Source: Eubacteriales bacterium
GTDB taxonomy: Bacteria > Bacillota > Clostridia > Oscillospirales > CAG-272
Direction of reading: 5' to 3'
Assembly (NCBI GenBank): GCA_045538685.1
Contig: JAZSRX010000013.1
Location: forward strand, 12,980-76,979
Length of the DNA stretch: 64,000 bases
In this document: piece by piece, positions 1,768 through 64,000 of the stretch
How positions within the stretch are numbered: the first letter of the stretch is position 1
How the letters are laid out: the number at the start of each line of letters is the position of its first letter
The notes under the pieces: generated by a model
The model's input: only the letters and a program-made list of their open reading frames with translations
What the model was told of the DNA's origin: nothing
Databases searched by the model: none
Position numbers and translations under genes: made by a program

Positions 1768-2271
1768 ATGTACGACGAGCTTACCGAAGTTGACATAAAG
1801 AAAATGGAAGATGAAATAAACTATCGCAAGACGGTTCTTGCTCCCGAGCTTGGAGCAGAGGTAAAACGCACTCGCGAGTATGGTGATCTTTCGGAAAATG
1901 CCGAATATAAAGAGGCGAAATATCTGAAACGCAAGAACGAAAGCCGTATTCGTTACCTGGAAAATATGATTCGCACCGCAAAGGTTATAGAAATTGGCGG
2001 CAGTAGTGATACAGTTGCACTGTTCGACAAGGTGCTTATTTATAACGAGCGAATGAAGGCAGAGAAGGAAATACATATTGTAACCACTCTGCGTCAGAAT
2101 GCACTACAAGGATATGTAAGCAAGGAATCTCCTCTTGGCGGAGCACTTCTCGGTCATAAGGTAGGCGACCGCCTGCTTGTAAAGGTAAGCGACACCGTTT
2201 CCTATTATGTAGAAATACGTGGTATAACTAAGGGAAAAGACGACGAAAATCTGCCTATTAGTGGATTTTGA
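1768..2271 (+). CDS. greA: GreA/GreB transcription elongation factor
   Basis: YGDLSENAEYKEAK and SKESPLGGALLG motifs. ATG 1768 follows GAAAGG and is preferred over 1726. Confidence 0.9.
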   Translation: MYDELTEVDIKKMEDEINYRKTVLAPELGAEVKRTREYGDLSENAEYKEAKYLKRKNESRIRYLENMIRTAKVIEIGGSSDTVALFDKVLIYNERMKAEKEIHIVTTLRQNALQGYVSKESPLGGALLGHKVGDRLLVKVSDTVSYYVEIRGITKGKDDENLPISGF

Positions 2272-2332
2272 TGAGTGCAGAGCGAGCAGAAAAAACGGTT
2301 AATAATCATTTTTTGTAGCGAAGCGGCCTATA

Positions 2333-2380
2333 TGCCTTCCCTGTTGGGGAAGGTGGCGGCGAAGCCGACGGATGAGGTTT
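2333..2380. repeat. left 48-bp inverted repeat (REP-like, double hairpin) flanking the DUF559 gene
   Basis: TGCCTTCCCTGTTGGGGAAGGTGGCGGCGAAGCCGACGGATGAGGTTT; its reverse complement matches 2780-2827 at 43/48 positions. Confidence 0.95.
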
Positions 2381-2430
2381 CCTTTGAAGTCAACCGAGCC
2401 GCAGCGAGAAGGTGGTGAATGAGGTGAAAA

Positions 2431-2832
2431 ATGAGCACATTTAACAACAATCCCGAACTCAAAGAATACGCACAATCTTTGAGAAGAAATATGACAAAAG
2501 AAGAAAAGCATCTTTGGTACGACTTTTTTAAAAAGCTTAATCTAGTCGTAAACAGGCAGAAAGTAATAAACAATTACATTGTGGATTTTTGTATTCCTTC
2601 GGCAAAGCTGATTATTGAGCTTGACGGATCACAGCACTATGAGCCCGAAAACAAGGAGTATGATAAACAACGAGATGATTTTCTTAAAAGTCAAGGTTAT
2701 ACCGTTCTTAGATATACAAATTTCGATATAAATAGAAATTTTGACGGAGTTTGTTTTGATATATTGAAGTATATAGAACAAACCTCATCCGTCACCTACG
2801 GTGCCACCTTCCCCAACAGGGAAGGCAAATAA
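2431..2832 (+). CDS. DUF559 (Vsr-like) endonuclease domain protein
   Basis: A..LRRNMT.EE..LW, RQ.VI.NYIVDF, LIIELDGSQH, D..RD.FL...GY.VLR motifs; GAGGTG SD. Confidence 0.92.
   Translation: MSTFNNNPELKEYAQSLRRNMTKEEKHLWYDFFKKLNLVVNRQKVINNYIVDFCIPSAKLIIELDGSQHYEPENKEYDKQRDDFLKSQGYTVLRYTNFDINRNFDGVCFDILKYIEQTSSVTYGATFPNREGK
2780..2827. repeat. right 48-bp inverted repeat, overlapping the 3' end of the DUF559 gene
   Basis: AAACCTCATCCGTCACCTACGGTGCCACCTTCCCCAACAGGGAAGGCA. Confidence 0.95.
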
Positions 2833-2909
2833 CTCTGCACTCTGCACTTTGCACTCTGCACTCTGCACTCTTCACTTTGCACTCTGCACTCTGCACTCTG
2901 CACTTTGCA
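2833..2909. repeat. heptamer tandem array (CTCTGCA/CTTTGCA) x11
   Basis: Eleven 7-bp units counted directly, starting right after the DUF559 stop. An inverted remnant GAGTGCAGAG lies at 2273-2282. Confidence 0.95.
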
Positions 2910-3065
2910 CTTAGTCGGTAAACCTAAGACTAACTTTAAAGCAGAAAAATAGCGAAATGGTGGAAATTTGTGCAATGTTCACAAAGAAAGCACCTTAAAG
3001 ACGGGCGAAAACAAGTTAATTTTTGTGCATTAATAAAAGTTAATAAAATAAAAATTTAAAATATA

Positions 3066-3094
3066 TTGACAAATTTCTAAAAAAAATGTATACT
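3066..3094 (+). promoter_or_regulatory. SigA-type promoter of the major pilin
   Basis: TTGACA-17 bp-TATACT, preceded by an A/T-rich UP-like region. Confidence 0.8.
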
Positions 3095-3276
3095 ATTGAT
3101 GCAATTAAGGGAAGTGTGTTTTTTTACTTTTCTTAATGCACAAATTAAGTTTGATAATGCAGGAAAAATGCAGATTTTGAATGTCCACCTTCCGAGTGGG
3201 TGGGCTGACAAAACAAAAACCTTTCCTGCGTACCAAAAAAATTAAAAAATAAAAATTTTGTTAGGAGATTTTCACA

Positions 3277-3606
3277 ATGAAAAGAAACAACAAGAAGGGC
3301 TTTACAATCGTTGAGCTCGTAATCGTTATTGCTGTTATCGCAATTCTTGCTGGCGTTATGATCCCCACCTTCGGTAGCATCATTACTAAGGCAAACGAGT
3401 CTAAGGAATTCCAGCAGGCATCTGCTGCATACAAGAATGCTCTTGCAGAAGAGCTCGCTGATGACGGTGTTATTGGTGATGCTGAGAACACCCAGGGTAA
3501 CTACACCTTCACTTGGGCAGACGACGTACTTACATCCGTTACTGGTAATGCAGGTTACACCTACAACGTTACCGACGGTGCTCTTACCGGCGTAACCAAG
3601 AACTAA
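3277..3606 (+). CDS. pilA: type IV major pilin
   Basis: Class III signal MKRNNKKG|FTIVELVIVIAVIAIL (F1, E5). Strongly biased codons; own promoter and downstream stem-loop. Confidence 0.9.
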   Translation: MKRNNKKGFTIVELVIVIAVIAILAGVMIPTFGSIITKANESKEFQQASAAYKNALAEELADDGVIGDAENTQGNYTFTWADDVLTSVTGNAGYTYNVTDGALTGVTKN

Positions 3607-3662
3607 TCCCTAATACATACCATTTTCTATAGTTTTCTATAATCACTCGGAAAAGGTTATAG

Positions 3663-3695
3663 ACACCACAACGCAATTTATGCGTTGTGGTGTTT
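3663..3695 (+). terminator. 13-bp stem-loop after pilin
   Basis: ACACCACAACGCA/TGCGTTGTGGTGT with a short T tail. Confidence 0.7.
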
Positions 3696-4012
3696 GCCTG
3701 TATTACCCTAATTTTAATGTACTTCTTTATACAAAAGTAAAGAGAAATGTTGACAATTTTGCCCCAAAAAGCAAACTTTGTTTTACATTTTTATCCAAAA
3801 ATTCATTAAAATTGTATTGTCTCGGAATATGCGAAGCCCTAAAATGTGGTTTAGTATATATCGAGCTTAAATTTTGTTAAAAATATTTTAAAGCTTTATT
3901 TTTTATTTTTTGCGTGTACGCGTAAAGCTTTAAAGTGAAAAAACTTCCATAACAGGAAAAACCAAGTCCCGAAAGTCCGGGTTCTTTGGCAAAAAGAAAA
4001 AAGGAGGCAGCC

Positions 4013-4498
4013 ATGAAAATTAAAAACAAAGGCAGACGCGGTGCAACGTTGACAGAGCTTATAGTTGTAATTGCCGTACTCTCGATAGTTGCGGTTATGG
4101 TGGTATCTTTTTCCACTATGGTTGGCGGAAGCCAAAGACTTGCTAAGGCAAAGGTAGATGCTCTTAGCGACATCAGGGTTGCTGAGTCGGTTGTTGAGAA
4201 TTTTATTAACAACGCATCCGATAGCAATAATACAAATTGTTATCGCAGCGAAACAATGCTGGCTAATATAGAGGGTGACACTCTTACTTTTGAGAACGGT
4301 GCACTTAATATTAACAAAACCGGCGGAGAAAACAGCACAGTTAATTTTGAACATATAACAAATATTACGTTCTTTTATCACAGCACTGCGGAAAACGGTG
4401 CAGACACAATCTACTACTGCAAAATTGCCTATGTTATAGGCGAACTTAATTATGAATATACCTTCTGCGTAAACCCTTACGCAGGTGAATCTATATAA
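4013..4498 (+). CDS. minor pilin / pseudopilin
   Basis: MKIKNKGRRG|ATLTELIVVIAVL (E5 kept, +1 Ala); AAGGAGG SD before ATG 4013. Confidence 0.85.
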   Translation: MKIKNKGRRGATLTELIVVIAVLSIVAVMVVSFSTMVGGSQRLAKAKVDALSDIRVAESVVENFINNASDSNNTNCYRSETMLANIEGDTLTFENGALNINKTGGENSTVNFEHITNITFFYHSTAENGADTIYYCKIAYVIGELNYEYTFCVNPYAGESI

Positions 4499-4511
4499 GG
4501 AGGTAGCTGAA

Positions 4512-4952
4512 ATGATTAAAGTGAACTCCGAAAGAAAACTTACCAACCGCAATGGAAAGCGACGCGGTTTTACTATGGTAGAGCTTGTTATATCGCTTAC
4601 TGTTATTGCGATTGTAACACTTGCAACTATCAGCATTATTAATGCACAGCACAGAATTTATACCCTGACTTCCCAGACCGCTGAGGCAACCAACATTACC
4701 GAAAATGCAATAGAGTGCTTCAGATATGCGGCGAACATATCAGATGACGAAGAAGTTGTAAAAAATGAATTTTACAATGCATTTGTAAAAACAGGGTATT
4801 TGAATACAGAACAGTATCCCGAGTCAGCAAGTTATTATGAAATAACCAAAAACGGTTTAAAGATTAATATTGGTGTTTCATCAAATCAGATTACAATCGT
4901 TTCCTACGACAGCTGGGGCGATCAGATTTTGGATGAAACCTACACTAAGTAA
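4512..4952 (+). CDS. minor pilin (PilV-like)
   Basis: ...GKRRG|FTMVELVISLTVIAI; TAAGGAGGT SD before ATG 4512. Confidence 0.85.
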   Translation: MIKVNSERKLTNRNGKRRGFTMVELVISLTVIAIVTLATISIINAQHRIYTLTSQTAEATNITENAIECFRYAANISDDEEVVKNEFYNAFVKTGYLNTEQYPESASYYEITKNGLKINIGVSSNQITIVSYDSWGDQILDETYTK

Positions 4953-4966
4953 GAAGGGAGATGCTT

Positions 4967-5293
4967 ATGAAAAAAACACTGCTTTCAAGACGTGGTGCGG
5001 CTATCGAAATGGCAATTGGTGTGCTGTTTCTGATGATGGGATTAAGCATTATCCTCGTTTCTTCCGCAACCATACAAAATTCACAGAGAAGAAAAGACTT
5101 TGCCGAGTTTAACAACAAGGTTGAGCTTATGGAAATTACCGATTATATAATCGAGAATCCCGAAGCCACAACCTACGGCGAAGATTATTCTATAACCTAC
5201 AACGAGGGAAATTATACTGTTACAAATACAAAAAATAACAGTGTTGTTTTGGAATTTACTGTAACAGACGGAAAAATCTCCTCTTGGAACTAA
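4967..5293 (+). CDS. minor pilin lacking E5 (PilX/GspK-like position)
   Basis: MKKTLLSRRG|AAIEMAIGVLFLMMG then a hydrophobic helix; last gene of the pilin triplet. Alternative start at 4961. Confidence 0.65.
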   Translation: MKKTLLSRRGAAIEMAIGVLFLMMGLSIILVSSATIQNSQRRKDFAEFNNKVELMEITDYIIENPEATTYGEDYSITYNEGNYTVTNTKNNSVVLEFTVTDGKISSWN

Positions 5294-5310
5294 ACGAAAG
5301 GACGAAAAAA

Positions 5311-6765
5311 GTGGCAGAAAAGAATAAAAACACTTTAGAGTCGGTTATCGGTGTTGATACCGACAGAGAGATAATTCATTTCTATTCCATGGACGGTGGA
5401 AATAAGGAAACGATTAATTATCATATGCAGGGATATAAGGCAAAGCCCTTCAGCCCCGAGTTTTACGATAAAATAAGCAACATTCTCGGTCAGTACCGCG
5501 AGGATCACCCCGACCACACTTTGCAGAAGGTTTCTATTGTGCTTTCTGACTCGGTGGCTCTTACCGATACGGTAAACCTTCCCCTCATCAACAAAAAGGC
5601 GATGGACTCATCTCTTGCCGCATCGCTGAGCAACCTTTACGGAAATAGCTCGGATCTTAAATTTAACCGTATTCTTGCACTTCAGTCGAAGAATATTGCT
5701 ACATATGCTATTTCGGGTATTAGAAAGGATATTCTCGTTAACCTGAACAAAGCTTTTGCTGCACATCAGATCAGCATCGGCAACATTACCTATGCATCAA
5801 GTGCGACTACAAATGCGGCTCTTACTCTTAATCCTAAAATCAAGAACGACTCTTTTGTTATTCTTGACATCAAAGAGGAGTTTGCAAGACTTATCTTTGT
5901 AGTAAAGGGCAAGACACTTGGCTTCTACACTCTGCCTTTCGGCTACAAAATTCTTTATAAGACAAGAGTTGCACCAGAGGATCTTCTCTTTGACCACAGC
6001 TCTGCCGAGCTTACCGTTCTTAATGCAAAGGAAAGAGCAAAGGCAAAGGCGGTTACAATGGCAGAGGAAGAGCTTACAGTTGCTTCCGAAGAGCCCGCCC
6101 CCCAAGCCGAAGAGAATGATGAAGACGAGATTGAGCCCTTCATCAGACCCAAGGCAGAGGATGAGGATGACGATGATGAAGAGGACTTCGAGGATGTAAA
6201 CGAGGAAGATAGCGAGGGCGATATGGAGTTTATCACCCGTAACCGCAAGAAGCCCGCAAGAAAGCTTCCTAAGTTTATGCTTCGTCCCACCCCCACAAAC
6301 CGTGAGGGATATATGTATGAAAACTTCAGAGTGTTCATTAAATGGACTCTTGAATTTATCGCAGGAAACCCCGGAATTACAGCACTTGGAGCACCTTCTG
6401 CTGTTTATGTAAATATGCCCGAGGAGTATTCCTTCCTTTACGATATGACAAATCTCGAGGCAGAGGACAACGGTTTGTCCTTCCTTCCTCTTCTTACAGA
6501 GCAGGAGGGTGACGTTGTAAAGAAAAACCTTGAGCTTTACGGCGGATTCTTTACAAAGCAGTTTAACGGCTTTAACAACTTCCAGCCGATTCACGTTGAC
6601 AGCCACAAGCCCCGTCTTCCCGAGAGGGAAGGAAAGTCCCAGCAGGAAGCTGAGCCACAGACCGAGGGCAAGAAGGATATCAAGCAACAGATTGCCGATT
6701 TCTTAAGCAAGGCAAAAGAGATTATCAAGAAGATTGCCACATATGAAATTGGCGGTAAGAAGTAA
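5311..6765 (+). CDS. hypothetical protein, probable highly divergent PilM-like protein with an acidic insertion
   Basis: N-terminal VIGVD strand, mid-protein VILDI..., F..TLPFG pattern reminiscent of PilM/FtsA, D/E-rich loop, and position in the pilus operon. GTG start after GAAAGGA. Confidence 0.5.
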   Translation: MAEKNKNTLESVIGVDTDREIIHFYSMDGGNKETINYHMQGYKAKPFSPEFYDKISNILGQYREDHPDHTLQKVSIVLSDSVALTDTVNLPLINKKAMDSSLAASLSNLYGNSSDLKFNRILALQSKNIATYAISGIRKDILVNLNKAFAAHQISIGNITYASSATTNAALTLNPKIKNDSFVILDIKEEFARLIFVVKGKTLGFYTLPFGYKILYKTRVAPEDLLFDHSSAELTVLNAKERAKAKAVTMAEEELTVASEEPAPQAEENDEDEIEPFIRPKAEDEDDDDEEDFEDVNEEDSEGDMEFITRNRKKPARKLPKFMLRPTPTNREGYMYENFRVFIKWTLEFIAGNPGITALGAPSAVYVNMPEEYSFLYDMTNLEAEDNGLSFLPLLTEQEGDVVKKNLELYGGFFTKQFNGFNNFQPIHVDSHKPRLPEREGKSQQEAEPQTEGKKDIKQQIADFLSKAKEIIKKIATYEIGGKK

Positions 6766-6779
6766 TCGGAGGGCGGAAT

Positions 6780-7577
6780 ATGGGAGCTGAACAATTTTAT
6801 TTGCTTTGTGCCTACATTTTGTCCGCACTTGTCGGACTCTGTGTCGGAAGCTTTCTTAACGTAGTAATTTACCGACTTCCAAACGAGATGAGCTTGGCAA
6901 AGCCCGCGTCTCACTGCACAACCTGTGACTACACTCTTAAATGGTATGACAATATTCCTGTTTTGTCCTACATATTCCTGGGTGGAAAGTGCAGAAAATG
7001 CGGTCAGAAAATATCACCCAGATATATGATAGTTGAGCTTGCAAATGCTATTCTTTGGGTTCTGTCGGTACACATTTTCTGGAAAGAAAATCCTGTTATG
7101 GCGGTTATTTCTGCCATAGTGATGTCCTGCCTGATTTGCATTTTCTTTATAGATCTCGATTGTATGCTTATTTTCAATCGTTTTCTTGTGATAATCGGTG
7201 TGCTCGGCATTGTTTCGATTTTCTTCGACAATTATCTTTATTGGTACGACCACCTTATCGGTGCGGCCGTGTTCGGCGGATTCTTCCTGCTTATTTACTA
7301 CATGGCAATATGGATTCTGAAACGCGAGGGAATGGGCTTTGGCGACGTTAAGTTTGCTTTTGTTGCAGGTCTGCTTCTCGGTTGGCAGAAAATGCTTTTT
7401 GCAATGATTATCGCATCTATCAGTGCAAGTATTATTCTTGTTATTGTTAAGAGGAGAAATGGCGACGAGGACGGAAAAGAATATCCCTTCGGCCCGTTCA
7501 TTTCTGTCGGTGTTGCAACCTCTATGCTGGTTGGCGAACCGATTATTACCTGGTATTTATCCCTGCTTGGACTTTGA
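6780..7577 (+). CDS. pilD: prepilin peptidase / N-methyltransferase
   Basis: GSFLNVVIYRLP, CTTC...WYDNIP..SY...GKCRKC, FFID, MGFGDVK, PFGPF. Confidence 0.96.
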   Translation: MGAEQFYLLCAYILSALVGLCVGSFLNVVIYRLPNEMSLAKPASHCTTCDYTLKWYDNIPVLSYIFLGGKCRKCGQKISPRYMIVELANAILWVLSVHIFWKENPVMAVISAIVMSCLICIFFIDLDCMLIFNRFLVIIGVLGIVSIFFDNYLYWYDHLIGAAVFGGFFLLIYYMAIWILKREGMGFGDVKFAFVAGLLLGWQKMLFAMIIASISASIILVIVKRRNGDEDGKEYPFGPFISVGVATSMLVGEPIITWYLSLLGL

Positions 7578-7622
7578 TCCGGCACTTCTCTAAAAAATTC
7601 TTGAAAGGGGGCAAATTGTTCC

Positions 7623-8843
7623 TTGCAAAAGTTTAAATATACGGCAGTAAACCTGCAAAACCAGAAAATTAAGGGCACATTCATTGCCGAGGACGAGCGT
7701 GATTTGGCTGAACAGCTTGCAAAGCAAAGTCTTTATCTCGTTTCCGCAACAGAATATACCGGCAATACTCCGAGCACCTTCTTTACACTCGGTACCGGAA
7801 AAATCACAATGCCCGAGCTGTCGAACTTCTGTCGTCAGTTCTCAATTATGCTGAATACAAACATTCCTCTTCTTGAGGCAATAGATATTCTTAAAAACCA
7901 GCCCTTCAGCTCGCTTTTGGTAAAGATTCTTGAAGTTATGTATGACGACGTTAAGGGCGGTATGTTGCTTTCTGAGGCACTTGAAAAGCACAAGAAGGTA
8001 TTCCCCGACTTCTTCCGCAGTATGACCTACGTTGGTGAGATGAGTGGAAAGCTTGACTTGGTTTTCAATGCTCTTGCTGATTACTATGAGAGAGATGACT
8101 CTATGCGTCGTAAGCTCAAGAGTGCTCTTTCTTATCCCATTATACTTCTCTGTATGACGGTTGGTATCGCGATTTTGATGCTTGCTTTCATCGTTCCTAC
8201 CTTCAAGACAGCTCTGGCAGACCTTGATGTTCCTATCGAGGGTATTACAAAGGTTGTTTACGGCATCTCTGACTTTATTCTTGAATGGTGGCGTATAATC
8301 ATAGCCGTTGTAATTCTTATAGGTGTGGGACTTTACATTTACTTCTCTACCGAGAAGGGAAAGTATACCCGCGACGTTCTGAAGGTAAAGATGCCTTTGC
8401 TTAAAACTATTCAGATTAACACTATTACCGCACGTTTTGCAAGAGCTTTCGCTCTTCTTCTTAACAGCGGTATGGACCTTACAGATGCTATGGACGCCGT
8501 TTCGGTTGTCCTTACCAACAAGTATTTGCAGAAAAAGTTTGCTACCGCAACCGACTATGTTCGTCACGGTATGTCTTTGACAAACGCATTTGAGAGTGTA
8601 GGTGTTTTCCCCACTATGCTTACCAAGATGGTAACTATCGGTGAGAGAACAAACTCGCTCAGCGACGTTCTTAACCGTTCCTGCAGCTACTTTGATGCAC
8701 AGCTTGAAAGCTCCTTTGCATCCTTCTCTGCAAAAATCCAGCCCATTATGATTTGTATTATGGGTGCTGTTGTTGCAACACTCTTCATTGCCGTTTACTC
8801 TCCTATGCTCTCCATTATGAGCACTCTCGGCAGCACATATTAA
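7623..8843 (+). CDS. pilC: type IV pilus platform protein (GspF family)
   Basis: F.Y.A N-terminus, FCRQFSIML, GEMSGKLD, ALSYP, two GspF repeats; TTG start. Confidence 0.95.
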   Translation: MQKFKYTAVNLQNQKIKGTFIAEDERDLAEQLAKQSLYLVSATEYTGNTPSTFFTLGTGKITMPELSNFCRQFSIMLNTNIPLLEAIDILKNQPFSSLLVKILEVMYDDVKGGMLLSEALEKHKKVFPDFFRSMTYVGEMSGKLDLVFNALADYYERDDSMRRKLKSALSYPIILLCMTVGIAILMLAFIVPTFKTALADLDVPIEGITKVVYGISDFILEWWRIIIAVVILIGVGLYIYFSTEKGKYTRDVLKVKMPLLKTIQINTITARFARAFALLLNSGMDLTDAMDAVSVVLTNKYLQKKFATATDYVRHGMSLTNAFESVGVFPTMLTKMVTIGERTNSLSDVLNRSCSYFDAQLESSFASFSAKIQPIMICIMGAVVATLFIAVYSPMLSIMSTLGSTY

Positions 8844-8894
8844 GCGGCATTAGGACTTTATTCCTGCCCCAATTAACAAGAAAGGGAAAAACTG

Positions 8895-10580
8895 ATGAAT
8901 ATAAATAAGGAACTCTTGCAGTTTTATACCTACAAGAAGCTTATAAAAAGAAAAAAAGCACCCGAGATTCTCTCTGAGTGTAAGGCAAGAAAGAGCAGTG
9001 TAAGAGATTACCTTCTTGCCAAAGAGATGATAACCGAGGTAAGCGAGCTTGAAGCACGTGCTGCATACTATTGTATGCCCTGTGTTGAGATAGACATGCT
9101 TGATATAGACGACTCGCTCTTTGAGAAGTTCACTTATGATCTTATGAAAAAGCATAAGTTCATTCCTGTTAGCGAGGATAAGAACGGTGTTGTTCTGATT
9201 GCTACCGGTAAGCCAATGAACTGCCACGCACTGTCGGCTTTGTCCACTCAGCTTTCGGGTAAGTATGACTTTGTACTCGTTCCCCCCATCCAGATAGACA
9301 GATATATCGACTCTATTTCCGCAATGGAGTCTACTCAGAAGGCGGTTAAGGACCTGAAGAGCGAGAAGACAGACAAGCTTATTCTTGCCCTCGGCGGTGA
9401 GCAGTCTGTTTCCAGCGACAGCGAGGTTATTAACAACCCTGCGGTTCGTCTTGTAGACTCGATTATTAAAGAGGCGATCCCCTTCCGTGCCAGTGATATA
9501 CATATCGAGCCCTTCGAGCACAATGTAAAGGTTAGATACCGTGTTGACGGTGACCTTCAGGAACGTACCGACTTTCCCATTGAAGCATATTCGGCTATTT
9601 GTGCAAGACTTAAAATTATGTCAGGCCTTAACATAGCAGAGCGTCGTGTGCCTCAGGACGGACGTATCAATATGGTTATCGGCGGTAAGGAATATGACTT
9701 CCGTGTATCTACACTTCCTACCATTTTCGGCGAAAAGTTCGTTATAAGAATTCTGGACAAGACCTCTTTCCAGTTCACTCGTGCAGACCTTGGATTTACT
9801 CCCGAGGAGAACAAGCTTGTTGACAAAATGCTTGCCCGCCCTCACGGAATTATCCTTCTTACCGGTCCTACGGGATGCGGTAAGTCTACTACACTTTACT
9901 CCTTCTTAAAGGAAGTAAACCGCTCTGACGTTAATATTGTAACGGTTGAGGACCCCGTTGAGTATTCAATGGCAGGTATCAACCAGACACAGGTTAATGT
10001 TAAGGCAAATATGACATTCGCAGCAGCTCTTCGTTCTATTCTCCGTCAGGACCCCGATATCATTATGATAGGTGAGATTCGAGACGAGGAAACCGCCGAG
10101 ATTGCTGTTCGTTCGGCTATCACAGGCCATATCGTATTCAGTACCCTTCATACCAATGACGCTCCCGGTGCGGTTGTTCGTCTTAAGGATATGAAGGTTA
10201 AGGATTATCTTGTTGCAGACGCACTTGTGGGTGTTATCGCCCAGCGTCTTGTTAAGAGAATTTGTCCCGCTTGCAGAAAAAGAGGTAAGACAAACACTCG
10301 TGAGATGGAGCTTCTCGGCATTGATGAGCCAATAGTTATTTCCAGACCTCAGGGCTGCCAGTTCTGTAACAACACAGGTTACAAGGGCAGAATTGCCGTT
10401 CACGAGCTTATGTATGTAAACGACAGAATGAGAAATGCTATTCTCGAAGAGGAGAATATCGAGAGTCTTCGTAAGGTTGCGACCGAAAACGGCATGACAC
10501 CTCTTTGGACCAGCTGCCGTGAGCTTGTTTTCAAGGGTGTTACAAGTATTCACGAGCTTATGTCTCTTAACGTTGAATAA
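8895..10580 (+). CDS. pilB: type IV pilus assembly ATPase (GspE/PulE family)
   Basis: ASDIHIEP, RYRVDG, ERRVPQDG, Walker A GPTGCGKST, VEDPVE, LRQDPDIIMIGEIRD, TGH..STLHTND, CPAC/CQFC zinc motif. Confidence 0.97.
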   Translation: MNINKELLQFYTYKKLIKRKKAPEILSECKARKSSVRDYLLAKEMITEVSELEARAAYYCMPCVEIDMLDIDDSLFEKFTYDLMKKHKFIPVSEDKNGVVLIATGKPMNCHALSALSTQLSGKYDFVLVPPIQIDRYIDSISAMESTQKAVKDLKSEKTDKLILALGGEQSVSSDSEVINNPAVRLVDSIIKEAIPFRASDIHIEPFEHNVKVRYRVDGDLQERTDFPIEAYSAICARLKIMSGLNIAERRVPQDGRINMVIGGKEYDFRVSTLPTIFGEKFVIRILDKTSFQFTRADLGFTPEENKLVDKMLARPHGIILLTGPTGCGKSTTLYSFLKEVNRSDVNIVTVEDPVEYSMAGINQTQVNVKANMTFAAALRSILRQDPDIIMIGEIRDEETAEIAVRSAITGHIVFSTLHTNDAPGAVVRLKDMKVKDYLVADALVGVIAQRLVKRICPACRKRGKTNTREMELLGIDEPIVISRPQGCQFCNNTGYKGRIAVHELMYVNDRMRNAILEEENIESLRKVATENGMTPLWTSCRELVFKGVTSIHELMSLNVE

Positions 10581-33895: not shown

Positions 33896-36800
33896 ATGAA
33901 AACCAGAAGTATTATCCTTCTAATGGCGTTAATGTTCGTGTTCGCCCTGGCGCTGACATCCTGCGATGCTATTTCGCAGCTGTTACCCGGAAACCAGTCG
34001 CACGAGCACAAGTGGGCAGAGGCTACTTGTACGTCACCTAAGACCTGTACTGAGTGTGATGCTACCGAGGGTGAGGCCCTTGGACACACCGAGCAGGTTA
34101 TTCCCGGAAAGGAAGCTACCTGTACAGAGGAAGGCTACACCGAGGGCAAGATCTGTACCGTATGTAACGAGGTTACTGTGGCACAGCAGTCTACCGTTGC
34201 AAAGGGACATTCTGCCATCGAAGCAGGCTGCGAGACCGCATCTACCTGTAGTGTGTGTCACGTAGTTCTCTCTCCCGCACTCGGTCATGATGAGGTGGAT
34301 GTAGCTCCTACCAATCCCACCTGTACCGAGGAGGGTCTTACCGCAGGTAAGGCGTGCTCCCGCTGCGATAAGGTATTCGTAGCGCAGGAGACCATTCCCG
34401 CACTCGGACATACCGAGGAGACCCTGGCAAGGGTTGAGCCCGATTGCGTAAACACCGGTTTTACCGAGGGTAAGAAGTGTTCTGTTTGCGGTGATATCAC
34501 CGTAGCACAGGAGACTATTCCCGCTCTTGGTCATACCGAGCAGACCCTGGCAAGGGTTGAGCCCGATTGTGTAAACACCGGTTTTACCGAGGGTAAGAAG
34601 TGCTCTGTATGCGGAGAGATCACCGTAGCACAGGAGACTATTCCCGCACTCGGACATACCGACGAGACTCTCGCAAGGGTTGAGCCCGATTGTGTAAACA
34701 CCGGTCTTACCGAGGGTAAGAAGTGCTCTGTATGCGGAGAGATCACCGTAGCACAGGAGACCATTCCCGCACTCGGACATACCGAGGAGGTCATCCCAGG
34801 ATTTGCACCCACCTGTACGGCAACAGGCCTTACCGATGGAAAGAAGTGTACCGTTTGCGGTGTGATCACCCAGGCACGGCAGGACATTCCCGCAAACAAC
34901 CACAAGGACGATGACGGCGACTTTAAGTGTGACGTATGTTCTGCAGTTCTTTGCACCAGCCACGTTGCATCCGAGCCCGTTCAGGAGGAGTATAAGGCAG
35001 CTACCTGTACCGAAGCCGGCTCCTACGTTCTCGTGACATATTGCGCAAACTGTCAGTACACTATGAACAGAGAGACTAAGGTTATTGATGCACTCGGACA
35101 TACCGATGAGATCCTTCCCGCCGTAGCACCCACCTGTACACAGACGGGTCTTACCGAGGGTAAGAAGTGCTCTGTTTGTAGCGCAATCCTCAAGGAGCAG
35201 GAGAAGGTCGATATCGTTCCTCATACTCCTGGTGAGTGGATCGTGACAACAAGTCCCACCTGCGAGACCGACGGTGAAAGACTTGCACAGTGTACCGTTT
35301 GTTCTGCTATTGCAAAGCAAGAGGCCATTAATAAGCTAGGCCACGCATACAGCGTGGTTTACACCTGGTCTGAGGACGGCTCTACCTGTACTGCAACAGA
35401 GATCTGTCAGAATGACAACAGTCACGTACGCAATACAGAGACCGCTACCGTTTCTACGGTCGACCTTGATGTAAGCAAGAGTGGCGTTAAGTTTACCTAT
35501 AACGTAGTATTTGCTAACGACAGCTTCGAGGCACAGAGCGTAGAGAAGAGCGGCGAGCTCGCTCTTGAAAATAAGATCGCAACCGTCACCGCTCCCGAGA
35601 TCGCCGGCAGAGTTGCATCTCACGACTTCGTAAAATTCAGCTTCCACGATGAGGAGGCAACCTATAAGTTCACTATTAACTATTCCGAGATCGACGTTTG
35701 GGACGGCTCGGTAGCTACCGAGTTTGCAGGCGGAAGCGGAACCGAAAACGATCCTTACATCATTAAGACCGGCGCACAGCTTGCATACCTTGCAAAGCTC
35801 GCTATGGACGGAACTGCCGCAAAAGATTCTGTTTACGGCACTGGCATTTACTACAAGCTTGCCGCATCCCTTGATCTCAGCGGACATCAGTGGACTCCCA
35901 TTGCAATGTACGACAAGGGTTATTCCTGGACATACTTCGACGGCATTTTTGATGGCGCAGGCCACAAGATCATCTTCAATATCGAAACTACGAGCTACGG
36001 CTACGGTCTGTTCGCAGGCCTTGGCGCAAATAGCGTTGTAAAGAACCTCACTCTCTACGGAAGTGTTAAGACCGCTCACAGAGCAGGCGCTCTTGCTTAC
36101 ATCACTCAGTCCGGCGCTTATGTAGAGAACGTAACCAACTATGCAAGTGTAACCTGTACCGCAACCGGCGGTTATGTAGGCGGTCTTGTCGGCTCCCTGT
36201 CCGGTGCTGATTCCGTAATGAACAACTGTGTAAACTACGGAACGGTTTCCAGCGCAGGCAAGCAGACCGGCGGTATTACCGGTACTACTCCCGCAACAAT
36301 AACCAACTCGGTTAACTTCGGTGATGTTACCTGTACTCCGGGTACCGTAGGCGGCATTACCGGTACTTCCACGACCGCTAAGATTATCGGCTGTGCAAAC
36401 TACGGCGCGATCGATGGCGAAGGCACCTGCGGCGGTATTGTAGGTAACATTACAACCAACACTACCGTATCTCTTTGCGTGAACTACGGAGCAGTTACCG
36501 CATCCAGCTGGAACCTTGGCGGTATCGGCGGCTATATGGGCGCGGGCAGCAGCGTTCTCGGCTGTGCAAACTACGGCAGCGTTATTCTTTCCGACAAGAG
36601 CAATGTCGGCGGTATTATAGGTAACAACCTTGGTGCTGTGGGCGACTACGTTGCTGCGGACGGCACCGTTTATCACACCGTGAACTACGGCACCGTTACC
36701 GGTCCTAAAAACGTTGGCGGTATTGCGGGTTATGCGTATGACAGCAAGACCGGCACTAACGGTACTATGACCAACGCTGTAAACTACGGCACCGTTAAGG

Positions 36801-61631: not shown

Positions 61632-64000
61632 ATGAAAACAAGAAGTATTTTTCTTATAGCAGCAGTATTGCTTGCGGCGGTATTGGCGTTTACCTCTTGT
61701 GATTTGATATCACAGTATCTACCCGGTGATAAGCATGAGCACACCTGGCAGGACGCTACATGTACCTCACCCCGAACCTGTACGAGCTGTAATGCGACCG
61801 AGGGAGATCCTCTCGGCCATACCGAGGAGGTCGTAGCAGGTAAGGAGGCCAGCTGTTCTGAAAAGGGACTCACCGAGGGCAAAAAATGCTCTCTTTGCGG
61901 TGAGATTCTTGTAGCACAGCAGGAAACTCCTATCAAGGATCATACCGAGGAGACGGTTCCCGGAAGCGATGCAAGCTGTACGGAAACAGGACTTACCGAA
62001 GGTAAAAGATGTGCCGACTGCGGTATTACCTTGGTTGAACAGCAGGAAATTCCTCTCAAGGATCATACCGAGGAGATCATTCCCGGTAAGGATGCAACCT
62101 GTACCGATAACGGTCTGACCGAGGGCAAGAAATGCTCGGTCTGCGGTGAGACTCTTGTGCCCCGTGAGGAGATTCCTCCCGTCGCGCACACAGAAGAGGT
62201 CGTACCCGGCAGAGCTCCCACCTGTACCGAAACCGGACTTACCGATGGTAAGAAGTGTTCTGTTTGCGGCACAACTCTTCTCGCTCAAGAGGAGCTTCCC
62301 ATTGAGCATAAGGAAGAGACTGTTGCGGGTAAGGATCCCACCTGTACCGAAACCGGACTTACCGATGGTAAAAAGTGTTCTCTTTGCGGCGCCATTCTCC
62401 TGAAGCAGGAGGAGATATCCTCCCTTGGACACAAGGATGAAAACGGCGACTACGAGTGTGACGTGTGTCACGCAGAGCTTTGCACAAACCATATTCCCGC
62501 AGAGCCCATTGTTGAAAATAAGAAGGACTCCAGCTGTAGCGAGACAGGCTCCTATGACAGCGTAATCAAGTGCTCCGTCTGCGGTGACGAGCTTGAGAGA
62601 GAGACCAAGACTATAGAAAAGCTTCCTCACACCGAGGAGGAAATTGCAGGTAAGGATGCAACCTGTACCGAAACAGGCCTTACCGCAGGTAAGAAGTGCT
62701 CTGTTTGTGGCGAGATCCTCGAGGCACAGCAGGAGATAGGCAAGCTTCCTCACACCGAGGAGGAAATTGCAGGCAAGGATGCAACCTGTACCGAAACAGG
62801 TCTTACCGCAGGTAAGAAGTGCTCTGTTTGCGGAGAGATCCTTGAGGCACAGCAGGAAATAAGCAAGCTTCCTCACACCGAGCAGACTCTGAGTGCAAAG
62901 GATCCCTCCTGCGTTGCAACCGGACTTACCGAGGGCAAGAAGTGCTCTGTTTGCGGTGAGATCCTTACAGAGCAGGAAACCATTCCCGCCGAAGGACATA
63001 AGTGGAACGGCGGAGAAACCCTTCTTGACGTTACAACCTACGAGTGTGAGGTTTGCGGTGTACAGAAGGTAGAAAGCGCAAAGCTTGAAAATGAAGATAA
63101 CATATTCTCGGGCAAGGAATTTGTGCCCACACCCGAGGCGGATGCTGTGGTTCTGAAGGCAAGCTGGTTCGCAGGCGGCGGATACGAGGTTCTTACCGAT
63201 GGCACCAGGGATCAGGAGCAGGTCGGTAGATTCTCCACTCTGATGAACAACACCACCTCCTTTATGGAGGCAACCCTTGATCTTCAGGAAAAGTACGTTC
63301 TCGGCAAGGTAAGATTCTACATCTACGATACCAAGGACAACCTCACAGAGGATTATAAGAAGGCAAGCGTTGGCTCTGACATCCTTATTCAGGTTTATCT
63401 TGGTGACAAGTGGTATGACGTGGTAGTCTGCGCAAACAACGAAGAGCTTTGCGGCAACCTCGTAATCAACGAAGGCGTAAATAACGATTATATCGAGTTT
63501 GACCTCACCGGTATTGTTGCCGAGAAGGTAAGATTCCTTATCGACTCTGCGGCAAGCAAGGACGGTATTACCTATCAGGAGATCGAGTGTGGTGGCGCGC
63601 TTCTTAATGAGCACGTTCACACCGAAACTATTCTTCCCGCAGAGGAAGCAACCTGCCTTCAGGCAGGAAAGACAGAGGGTGTTGTTTGTAACGTTTGTAA
63701 CACTACTCTGAAGGAGCAGCAGGTAATCGATGCTCTTGGTCACAGTTGGGGCGAGCCGATCGTTGCTGACGGTAAAACCGTAACCTCCTGTACCGTATGC
63801 GGTCTTACGAAGCTTGAGTCCGCAGATCTTGAAAGCGTAGATAATCTGTTCGCAGGCAAGAGATTCAATCCCACCGATGCAGCACTTGCAAGCGCTCTTT
63901 CCGCTTCTTGGTGGAAGGGTAGCGGATACCCCGGACTTACCGACGGTATAAAGAATGCAGATAATGCTCCCGGTAGATTTGCCACTAAGATGGCTCTTGA
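61632..64000 (+). CDS. large surface lipoprotein (3'-truncated by the window): His/Cys repeats + F5/8-like domains; N-terminal paralog of 33896-38731
   Basis: AAGGAG SD; MKTRSIFLIAAVLLAAVLAFTSC-DLISQYLPG..HEH.W..ATCTSP. The same frame is in use at the window end (...RFATKMAL). Absent from the ORF track, consistent with no stop in the window. Confidence 0.9.
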   Translation, partial: MKTRSIFLIAAVLLAAVLAFTSCDLISQYLPGDKHEHTWQDATCTSPRTCTSCNATEGDPLGHTEEVVAGKEASCSEKGLTEGKKCSLCGEILVAQQETPIKDHTEETVPGSDASCTETGLTEGKRCADCGITLVEQQEIPLKDHTEEIIPGKDATCTDNGLTEGKKCSVCGETLVPREEIPPVAHTEEVVPGRAPTCTETGLTDGKKCSVCGTTLLAQEELPIEHKEETVAGKDPTCTETGLTDGKKCSLCGAILLKQEEISSLGHKDENGDYECDVCHAELCTNHIPAEPIVENKKDSSCSETGSYDSVIKCSVCGDELERETKTIEKLPHTEEEIAGKDATCTETGLTAGKKCSVCGEILEAQQEIGKLPHTEEEIAGKDATCTETGLTAGKKCSVCGEILEAQQEISKLPHTEQTLSAKDPSCVATGLTEGKKCSVCGEILTEQETIPAEGHKWNGGETLLDVTTYECEVCGVQKVESAKLENEDNIFSGKEFVPTPEADAVVLKASWFAGGGYEVLTDGTRDQEQVGRFSTLMNNTTSFMEATLDLQEKYVLGKVRFYIYDTKDNLTEDYKKASVGSDILIQVYLGDKWYDVVVCANNEELCGNLVINEGVNNDYIEFDLTGIVAEKVRFLIDSAASKDGITYQEIECGGALLNEHVHTETILPAEEATCLQAGKTEGVVCNVCNTTLKEQQVIDALGHSWGEPIVADGKTVTSCTVCGLTKLESADLESVDNLFAGKRFNPTDAALASALSASWWKGSGYPGLTDGIKNADNAPGRFATKMAL
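62619..62990 (+). repeat. 123-bp intragenic tandem repeats (His/Cys unit)
   Basis: AAGCTTCCTCACACCGAG recurs at 62619, 62742 and 62865. Confidence 0.9.

Follow-up and report, generated by a model that had tools for sequence, protein, structure and literature searches.

A DUF559 endonuclease gene between inverted triplex-type repeats: a candidate transposase-free mobile cassette of bacteria

In the window, by which we mean the whole 64,000-nucleotide stretch of an Eubacteriales genome analysed here, a lone gene for a predicted Vsr-like DUF559 endonuclease lies between two inward-facing copies of a dispersed triplex-type repeat, and the cassette found at this site differs between relatives. We observed linkage of such genes to such repeats across phyla, mirror covariation within the repeat, a match between repeat subtype and protein clade, cassette turnover, a near-identical duplicate and a lack of target-site duplication. 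We consider it reasonably probable (about 0.6) that the cassette of repeat, gene and inverted repeat spreads through cutting of the folded repeat of its own subtype by the predicted nuclease, combined with host recombination. We infer that the protein would bind and cut the triplex, and that repair would be left to host recombination with no transposase involved.

The cassette and its predicted nuclease

The gene order in the window is acetate kinase, greA, a 133-amino-acid open reading frame and then a type IV pilin operon (Table 1). A preliminary description had listed inverted arms, a lone nuclease gene, a heptamer array and the greA stop codon, all of which we recovered at the same positions. 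The two arms are inverted and identical at 43 of 48 positions (88% when extended to 52 nt). All five differences are confined to an internal mini-hairpin whose pairing is preserved in both arms, GGC-GAA-GCC in the left and ACC-GTA-GGT in the right. The left end is a nested composite, with a second repeat module placed around the left arm and an older half-motif behind it. The third tract of this half-motif, GAGGTG, ends 4 nt before the ATG and is likely to serve as the ribosome-binding site; an in-frame start lay at most 9 nt from the third tract in 36 of 44 loci. The right arm is read through as residues ~117–133, the predicted disordered C-terminal tail.

Table 1. Positions of the cassette and its surroundings in the window
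Feature	Position	Strand	Basis or remark
greA, upstream host gene, outside cassette	1768..2271	+	Pfam/NCBIfam match; stop 2269-2271
Probable single inverted heptamer remnant, CTCTGCA family	2272..2282	-	GAGTGCAGAG at 2273-2282
Second repeat module, TAGCGAAGCGGC ... GAGCCGCAGCGA, enclosing left arm	2316..2407	+	13 right ends across genome
Left arm, triplex-type motif	2333..2380	+	Sequence, folding
Left arm tracts	2335-2341; 2346-2353; 2354-2369; 2370-2377		Pyrimidine tract (then loop); purine tract; linker; third (mirror) tract
Older degenerate motif, 3' half only	2408..2426	+	Sequence
Predicted DUF559/YcjD-type Vsr-like endonuclease gene, 133 aa	2431..2832	+	PF04480
Right arm, same motif type as left arm	2780..2827	-	Third tract 2783-2790, purine tract 2807-2814
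(CTCTGCA)x11.4 array, outside cassette	2832..2911	+	Dispersed heptamer family
Type IV pilin gene, downstream host gene	3277..3606	+	Own sigma-70-type promoter at 3066-3094

Contigs assembled from public runs of two studies extend from greA into the left arm, through the interior of the gene, and from the right arm into the array, each contig holding part of the stretch; the cassette is thus not an assembly artefact. An apparent excision junction joining 2353 to 2805 in two public runs was set aside, its short side being 24 letters and other organisms or repeats being a possible source. There was no Rfam match at E ≤ 1 between 1600 and 4100, no terminator-like site at either arm, no transposase domain in the open reading frame by Pfam, and no methyltransferase gene adjoining it.

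The predicted protein matched PF04480 over residues 10–115 with an E-value of 2.4e-32 and 111.5 bits (curated cut-off 20.6; model positions 3–108 of 109). The NCBIfam YcjD equivalog scored 70, below its cut-off of 218. An alignment of 111 sequences shows no variation at E25, D52 and D65 and at least 90% conservation at E63, H69, D78 and R81; positions 36, 39, 82 and 95 vary with repeat subtype. The predicted model has a mean pLDDT of 84, falling below 50 for residues 120–133, and was closest to 3HRL (E 1.5e-5) and to the catalytic domain of I-Bth0305I, 3R3P (E 2e-5), with Vsr at E 0.11; the sequence-based structure search returned 3HRL only. 3R3P is the nearest characterised fold (TM 0.61–0.62 by query), and the weak matches of the model include mitoribosomal proteins. 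The catalytic set of Vsr is E25, D51, H64, H69 and D97. The window protein contains Vsr-like residues E, D, H and D, of which the last Asp is a putative assignment, and judged from the alignment these residues are intact and under purifying selection. It is a 133-residue single domain, and no NUMOD DNA-binding region is present.

Triplex-type arms and neighbouring repeat families

Each arm consists of a pyrimidine tract, a loop and a purine tract that together make a hairpin, then a linker and a third tract that mirrors the purine tract. The class II definition of BoxC/PIT/TM repeats calls for a pyrimidine-loop-purine hairpin plus a mirror purine tract with at most one mismatch, and both arms were found to have this form. 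With seven of eight standard triads, each is predicted to fold as a purine-motif intrastrand triplex; folding was computed for the Watson-Crick hairpins only, and the triplex is predicted from sequence. The preliminary description was thus right about the hairpin and overlooked the BoxC/PIT-type motif with its mirror tract. It had also called the arms terminal inverted repeats; they are members of a dispersed repeat family, neither specific to the element nor transposon ends. Its suggestion that the repeat is scattered through the genome was borne out by BLAST and pattern searches of the assembly (1.88 Mb, 80% complete), in which the motif occurs on many contigs and most copies are intergenic solos. 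A strict pattern retrieved nine full copies of the window-arm type and three of a second type. A gene-less inverted pair lies on contig C46, and one further DUF559 gene, the only other in the genome (contig C67, 45% identical), has an inverted pair of another subtype around it. The arm repeat may resemble the Caulobacter CIR, rhizobial RIME and Bru-RS repeats.

The mirror relation was assessed in 80 clostridial motifs anchored by hairpin and linker, with the mirror rule unused and four mis-anchored rows kept. Of 560 cells, 488 obeyed G*G, A*A or T*A, compared with a permutation mean of 363 and maximum of 409, in a set that holds just 25 distinct pairs and is uncontrolled for relatedness. Slid or parallel registers gave 46–62%, slid registers alone 47–54%, against 89% for the mirror register. 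Counted from the linker, the two tracts switch together, the leading pairs of purine and third tract being A:T 47 and G:G 28 at position 4, G:G 52 and A:A 24 at position 7, and G:G 53 and A:T 22 at position 8. Position 1 gave G:G 42 and C:T 35; T opposite a C-G inversion is described as the natural base used in antiparallel triplexes in the accessible text of PMC6158708. Position 6 counts against a triplex, being a G:A mismatch in 41 of the 80 motifs, both window arms among them.

Triloops of the C-GNA-G and C-GNNA-G type form stable hairpins specific to DNA. Linker loops of this kind were on the G-rich strand in 49 of 76 motifs and on the other strand in two; the window linkers hold C-GAA-G (left arm) and C-GTA-G (right arm) mini-hairpins. 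In the left arm it is the coding strand that can fold, in the right arm the non-coding strand, and this switch points to DNA rather than mRNA as the folded molecule. According to the text of PMC4666352 available, purine-motif triplexes do not form in RNA. In the preferred reading the triplex would form inside the cell.

The heptamer arrays had been proposed as an outer layer of the element. This was rejected: arrays flank one of 127 dereplicated DUF559 loci, none is present between greA and pilA in relatives, and the genome has about ten further arrays at places several kilobases away from triplex motifs. The left heptamer remnant is probably real and part of a separate repeat family, judging by its match, together with the preceding stop, to 15 nt at an array end on contig C20. 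In the window genome (G000), CTCTGCA-type arrays also occur at C61:68430-68641 as an inverted pair around 140 nt of other palindromes, oriented like the remnant and array of the window. Cassettes of PF05635 four-helix-bundle genes were considered as a possible home of the arrays; short tandem arrays with other repeat units were seen by eye at 3 of 20 PF05635 loci in the genus (L253, L255 and L261, inverted on both sides in L253 and L255). None was present at the four PF05635 loci of the window genome that were inspected, and most other PF05635 genes have small palindrome clusters upstream.

The second module is a hairpin of 70–95 nt with fixed ends. It breaks up triplex motifs at a constant place within the purine tract, and in the genome the 3' half of such a motif comes after most of its right ends. 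It was found on contigs C9, C20, C23, C30, C66, C71 and C73 of G000 and at loci L044, L124, L231 and L264; in the genome and in three of these foreign loci (L044, L124, L231) the interrupted motifs are of differing subtypes. It also occurs within other repeats, at times in tandem. The shared point could reflect a recurrent break or descent from one event, and it may mark the cut site of the nuclease.

Linkage across bacteria and turnover between greA and pilA

The preliminary description had anticipated that other DUF559 genes would be enriched for flanking inverted copies, and two sets of loci agree with it. Homologues were found at 78 genome loci, 72 of them with full flanks, and an inverted repeat pairing upstream and downstream flanks (score ≥30) was found at 50 of the 72, compared with 1 of 268 shifted control windows. 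This first set was ranked by similarity to a query with an arm-encoded tail, so sets chosen otherwise were added, namely Pfam matches across the order, plasmid records of other phyla (11 of 29 matches taken in) and YcjD relatives from metagenomes. The resulting 201 loci gave 187 full-length stand-alone genes and, after 90% dereplication and the flank requirement, 127 loci. A triplex-type motif was present within the 250–300-nt flank at 113 of the 127, from several phyla (57/65, 18/22, 9/10 and 26/27 by set, plus both loci of the window genome and E. coli). Shifted single windows gave 2 of 210, and shuffles 1 and 0 of 381. Because related loci are not independent, every count in this analysis is an overestimate.

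The motif lay upstream on the coding strand at 73 of the 127 loci and downstream on the opposite strand at 79. With the strict finder both inward-facing arms were present at just 51, and E. coli ycjD has motifs downstream only; both observations count against the preferred reading. On viral contigs the motif accompanied 13 of 21 proteins with an LRxxxTxxE helix motif, versus 1 of 40 Vsr-like proteins without it. Linkage is specific to the short stand-alone DUF559 subfamily. In a quick tree, repeat subtype followed protein clade with 17 changes, versus 59 after shuffling, and all 14 AGGGATT-type rows fell on one branch that spans many host families; support is weak (71 of 124 inner branches open) and kin share labels. 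The 128 neighbour proteins of DUF559 loci fell into 114 clusters. On two cyanobacterial plasmids (L133, L137) the DUF559 gene lies beside or between DUF1156-annotated genes, one of which it apparently splits in L133.

At the level of genomes, at least three motif copies were found in 27 of 38 genomes of the order with a full-length gene, against 9 of 113 without; after subtraction of two copies per gene, 19 of 38 stood against 9 of 113. This comparison of 151 genomes rests on incomplete assemblies and has exceptions in both directions. The searched pattern is absent from 7 of the 38 gene-positive genomes, and two gene-negative genomes hold more than 70 repeats, one being 75% complete and the other having a 44-residue gene fragment.

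We compared 29 pilin-leader loci from 26 genomes of the genus, in seven of which greA adjoins pilA. Four of the seven carry cassettes of three subtypes, starting 0–60 nt 3' of the greA stop, two carry a lone hairpin and one a solo motif, in line with the earlier expectation that the gene would not be syntenic. The window cassette is of the TGTTG-loop subtype, that of G360 is of the TTGAG-loop subtype (66% amino acid identity), and those of G242 and G211 are AAAGGGAG-type (53–56%). Matching arms at both ends of each cassette indicate that arms and gene were exchanged together. G234 has a lone hairpin only, GCCTTCC-loop-GGAAGGC, G239 a degenerate lone hairpin, and G178 the solo motif. In relatives whose gene order differs, 12 greA loci had no cassette behind greA.

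In locus L001, which is identical in sequence to the locus of G360, a single pilin operon contains three cassettes and a gene-less pair. Two of its DUF559 genes are identical at 321 of 324 nt, and both of their sites are empty in the window. One of these sites, site B, is also empty in the near-identical L002, in an alignment of two rows read by eye; about 35–45 nt of flank per side differs as well, so that the filled and empty alleles show replaced flanks and no clean junction, which counts against the preferred reading. Identity at the three codon positions is 0.87/0.92/0.64 between the window gene and the L001 duplicate copies, higher than the 0.74/0.78/0.48 found against the cassette at the orthologous site; greA third positions are at 0.40. 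Among two-armed loci, 40 of 49 had no target duplication, and the other nine had 2–4 nt in AT-rich flanks.

One prepilin gene has gene-less inverted pairs inserted in frame into its cleavable leader, of one subtype in L001 (3492–3614) and of another in L002 (about 1850–1985); the window orthologue (4485–4952) has no inverted pair. The prepilin leader peptide is likely a neutral landing site. In G000, equivalent positions downstream of two paralogous genes hold a gene-less pair of one subtype (C46:200-440) and a complete cassette of a different subtype (C67:26090-26640). Of 5426 E. coli genomes, 3377 carry ycjD and 5422 carry sapF. Three genomes without ycjD were compared for a clean empty site, and this was rejected: behind sapF they hold an MFS transporter gene, which marks a larger rearrangement.

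Proposed mechanism, alternatives and known systems

In the preferred reading, the G-rich strand would fold when exposed during replication, supercoiling or DNA uptake. A strand folded in this way, if of the matching repeat subtype, would be the substrate that the predicted Vsr/EDxHD-type nuclease recognises and nicks. Existing repeat copies could then receive the cassette, or gene-less repeat pairs, through host recombination, or one cassette could be swapped for another, and collapse between the two terminal hairpins would leave a lone hairpin, as in the gene-less alleles. Neither ligase nor transposase chemistry is known for the window protein, which counts against this scheme. A wider version, which we hold tentatively and with the odds somewhat against it, is that YcjD-type DUF559 proteins are structure-specific, triplex-reading nucleases with clade-specific triad codes, and that they drive a transposase-free 'repeat homing' element which replaces itself at existing repeats and seeds BoxC/PIT repeats throughout bacteria, E. 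coli among them.

The nuclease might instead be a domesticated partner of the SsnA kind, cutting or binding the repeat for the host in order to trim incoming single-stranded DNA, diversify pilin loci or resolve fork-blocking triplexes, with the cassette moving passively through recombination between repeats. SsnA/NTS has the same architecture and modulates transformation (PMC11893778, from the text available), cassettes pile up in the type IV pilin operon, and ycjD occupies one site in the E. coli genomes that have it. The far stronger conservation of first and second codon positions than of third positions has also been put on this side, and such purifying selection fits selfish and domesticated genes alike. 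We regard domestication as doubtful, given the patchy occurrence (full-length copies in 38 of 151 genomes of the order), the several paralogues of differing subtypes per genome, and the diversity of neighbours and near-identical L001 duplicate, which fit a selfish element better. It is improbable that the protein is a solitary very-short-patch repair nuclease, nicking T:G mismatches for an unlinked cytosine methyltransferase, with the repeats carried along as passengers at intergenic hot spots. In favour of this, the protein retains the Vsr catalytic residues, a Pfam search found two unlinked C5 methyltransferase genes in the window genome, and Caulobacter VsrA is itself a DUF559 protein that is not linked to ScmA, its proposed partner, and that triggers the SOS response when scmA is mutated; its repair role is a hypothesis in the portion of PMC12907096 available. 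Such a nuclease leaves unexplained the oriented, subtype-matched arms on both sides in several phyla and the replacement of whole cassettes at one site; no C5 methyltransferase was found in the 201 loci (median flanks ~1.5 kb), and the predicted fold is nearer I-Bth0305I than Vsr.

We consider it very improbable that the arms are MITE ends moved in trans, for instance by an IS200/RAYT-type Y1 transposase with DUF559 as cargo, or that the protein binds repeat RNA like its RAP-domain relatives. Gene-less inverted pairs do exist (contig C46; site C of L001), and the genome holds three Y1 transposase fragments, located elsewhere than the DUF559 cassette. No triplex motif was found in the 500–700 nt around these fragments, however, nor any Y1 match in the 201 loci; target duplication is lacking at most two-armed loci, and a cargo gene would lose its match between subtype and clade. 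The weak mitoribosomal fold matches speak for RNA binding, and the switch of foldable strand between the arms, with the absence of purine-motif triplexes in RNA, speaks against it.

BoxC/PIT triplex repeats have been known since the 1990s, with copy numbers that vary wildly between strains, and we know of no function, partner or means of spread for them. DUF559, for its part, is a large family of predicted nucleases with, as far as we are aware, almost no tested function. A literature search, to which subscription papers and bioRxiv supplements did not belong, returned no paper linking DUF559 to flanking repeats. With DUF559 and BoxC linked, both questions could be addressed by means of a single 115-residue protein and an oligonucleotide of 45 nt, in E. 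coli K-12 (ycjD) as well. Among systems that pair a nuclease with a repeat, DUF559 would join RAYT (HUH) and Ssn (GIY-YIG) as a third enzyme class. Should the nuclease indeed read the triplex, it would be a naturally occurring triplex-specific enzyme, available in several natural specificities. The DNA damage that Caulobacter VsrA causes can also be read differently in this light. Finally, the greA–pilA interval is a natural allelic series, with three cassette subtypes, a lone hairpin and a solo motif at one site, that constrains the mechanism.

The window repeat is BoxC-class by architecture, not by consensus. It shares with the E. coli repeat, TM(ECO), the order of pyrimidine tract, loop, purine tract, linker and mirror purine tract, as well as intergenic location, tens of copies, inverted pairs and patchiness between strains; the DUF559 gene of E. 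coli, ycjD, has such motifs just downstream. It differs in its tracts (GGGGAAGG/GGATGAGG in the window type, GGGNGAGGG/GGGNGAGGG in TM(ECO)) and in its linker, a hairpin of ~16 nt here, a 3-nt loop in TM(ECO) and 1–6 nt in the published finder. In the retrieved text of Holder et al. 2015 (PMC4666352), the source of these comparisons, the class II purine-motif triplex of the E. coli repeat was proven in vitro with little triplex protection in vivo, no partner enzyme is named, no link to mobile elements was found, and the words 'endonuclease' and 'ycjD' occur 0 times. The longer linker here and the slight protection in vivo both count against the preferred reading.

The cassette also recalls Ssn/NTS-SRM, in which a small single-domain nuclease gene lies between cognate structured repeats that also occur as solo copies, and Ssn homologues have their own repeat variants, as do DUF559 clades. 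Ssn is a GIY-YIG enzyme (cd10448) of demonstrated nuclease activity and NTS a simple hairpin, whereas here a PD-(D/E)XK Vsr-like enzyme is predicted and the repeat is of triplex type; DUF559 and Vsr occur 0 times in the available text of the source (PMC11893778, Chenal et al. 2025). As in RAYT/REP systems (REPtrons) and TIRYT/TIRtrons, the gene is bracketed by inverted dispersed palindromes and gene-less dimers occur, but RAYT and TIRYT are HUH tyrosine transposases, and the cassette has no HUH/Y1 domain and no GTAG tag (PMC3733652, Di Nocera et al. 2013, as far as its text was available). The EDxHD homing endonuclease I-Bth0305I, whose E170, D196 and H213 match E25, D52 and H69 of the window protein, spreads by cutting and recombination, as proposed for the cassette; its target is the intron-less allele, while that of the cassette appears to be a repeat family (PMC3239194, PMC3384342, from the text accessible). 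Unlike I-Bth0305I, the cassette lacks a NUMOD region, an intron or an intein, and it is chromosomal and intergenic. The catalytic core is shared with Vsr and with Caulobacter VsrA (PMC12907096); the window gene differs from Vsr in its weak structural score, its repeat boundaries, its mobility and the lack of an adjacent methyltransferase. Classical IS elements and MITEs differ from it in transposase and in target-site duplication.

The pilin gene downstream opens a complete type IV pilus or competence-like cluster (3277–10580: pilins, prepilin peptidase, PilC- and PilB-like genes), in which the pilin variable region differs between conspecific contigs. Between the pilA promoter and start, a conserved non-coding leader occupies 3147–3236. 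Across six relatives two of its motifs, TTTGATAATGC and CTTCCGAGTGG, hardly change whereas the spacers vary, and the predicted hairpin around the second motif shows double changes at four of nine pairs. Rfam matches in 3080–3290 were at chance level, and the leader is a candidate cis-regulatory RNA of pilin genes. Farther along the window, 123-bp coding tandem repeats at 34378–34870, 61818–62160 and 62619–62965 encode Cys/His-rich units of 41 residues in surface-type proteins.
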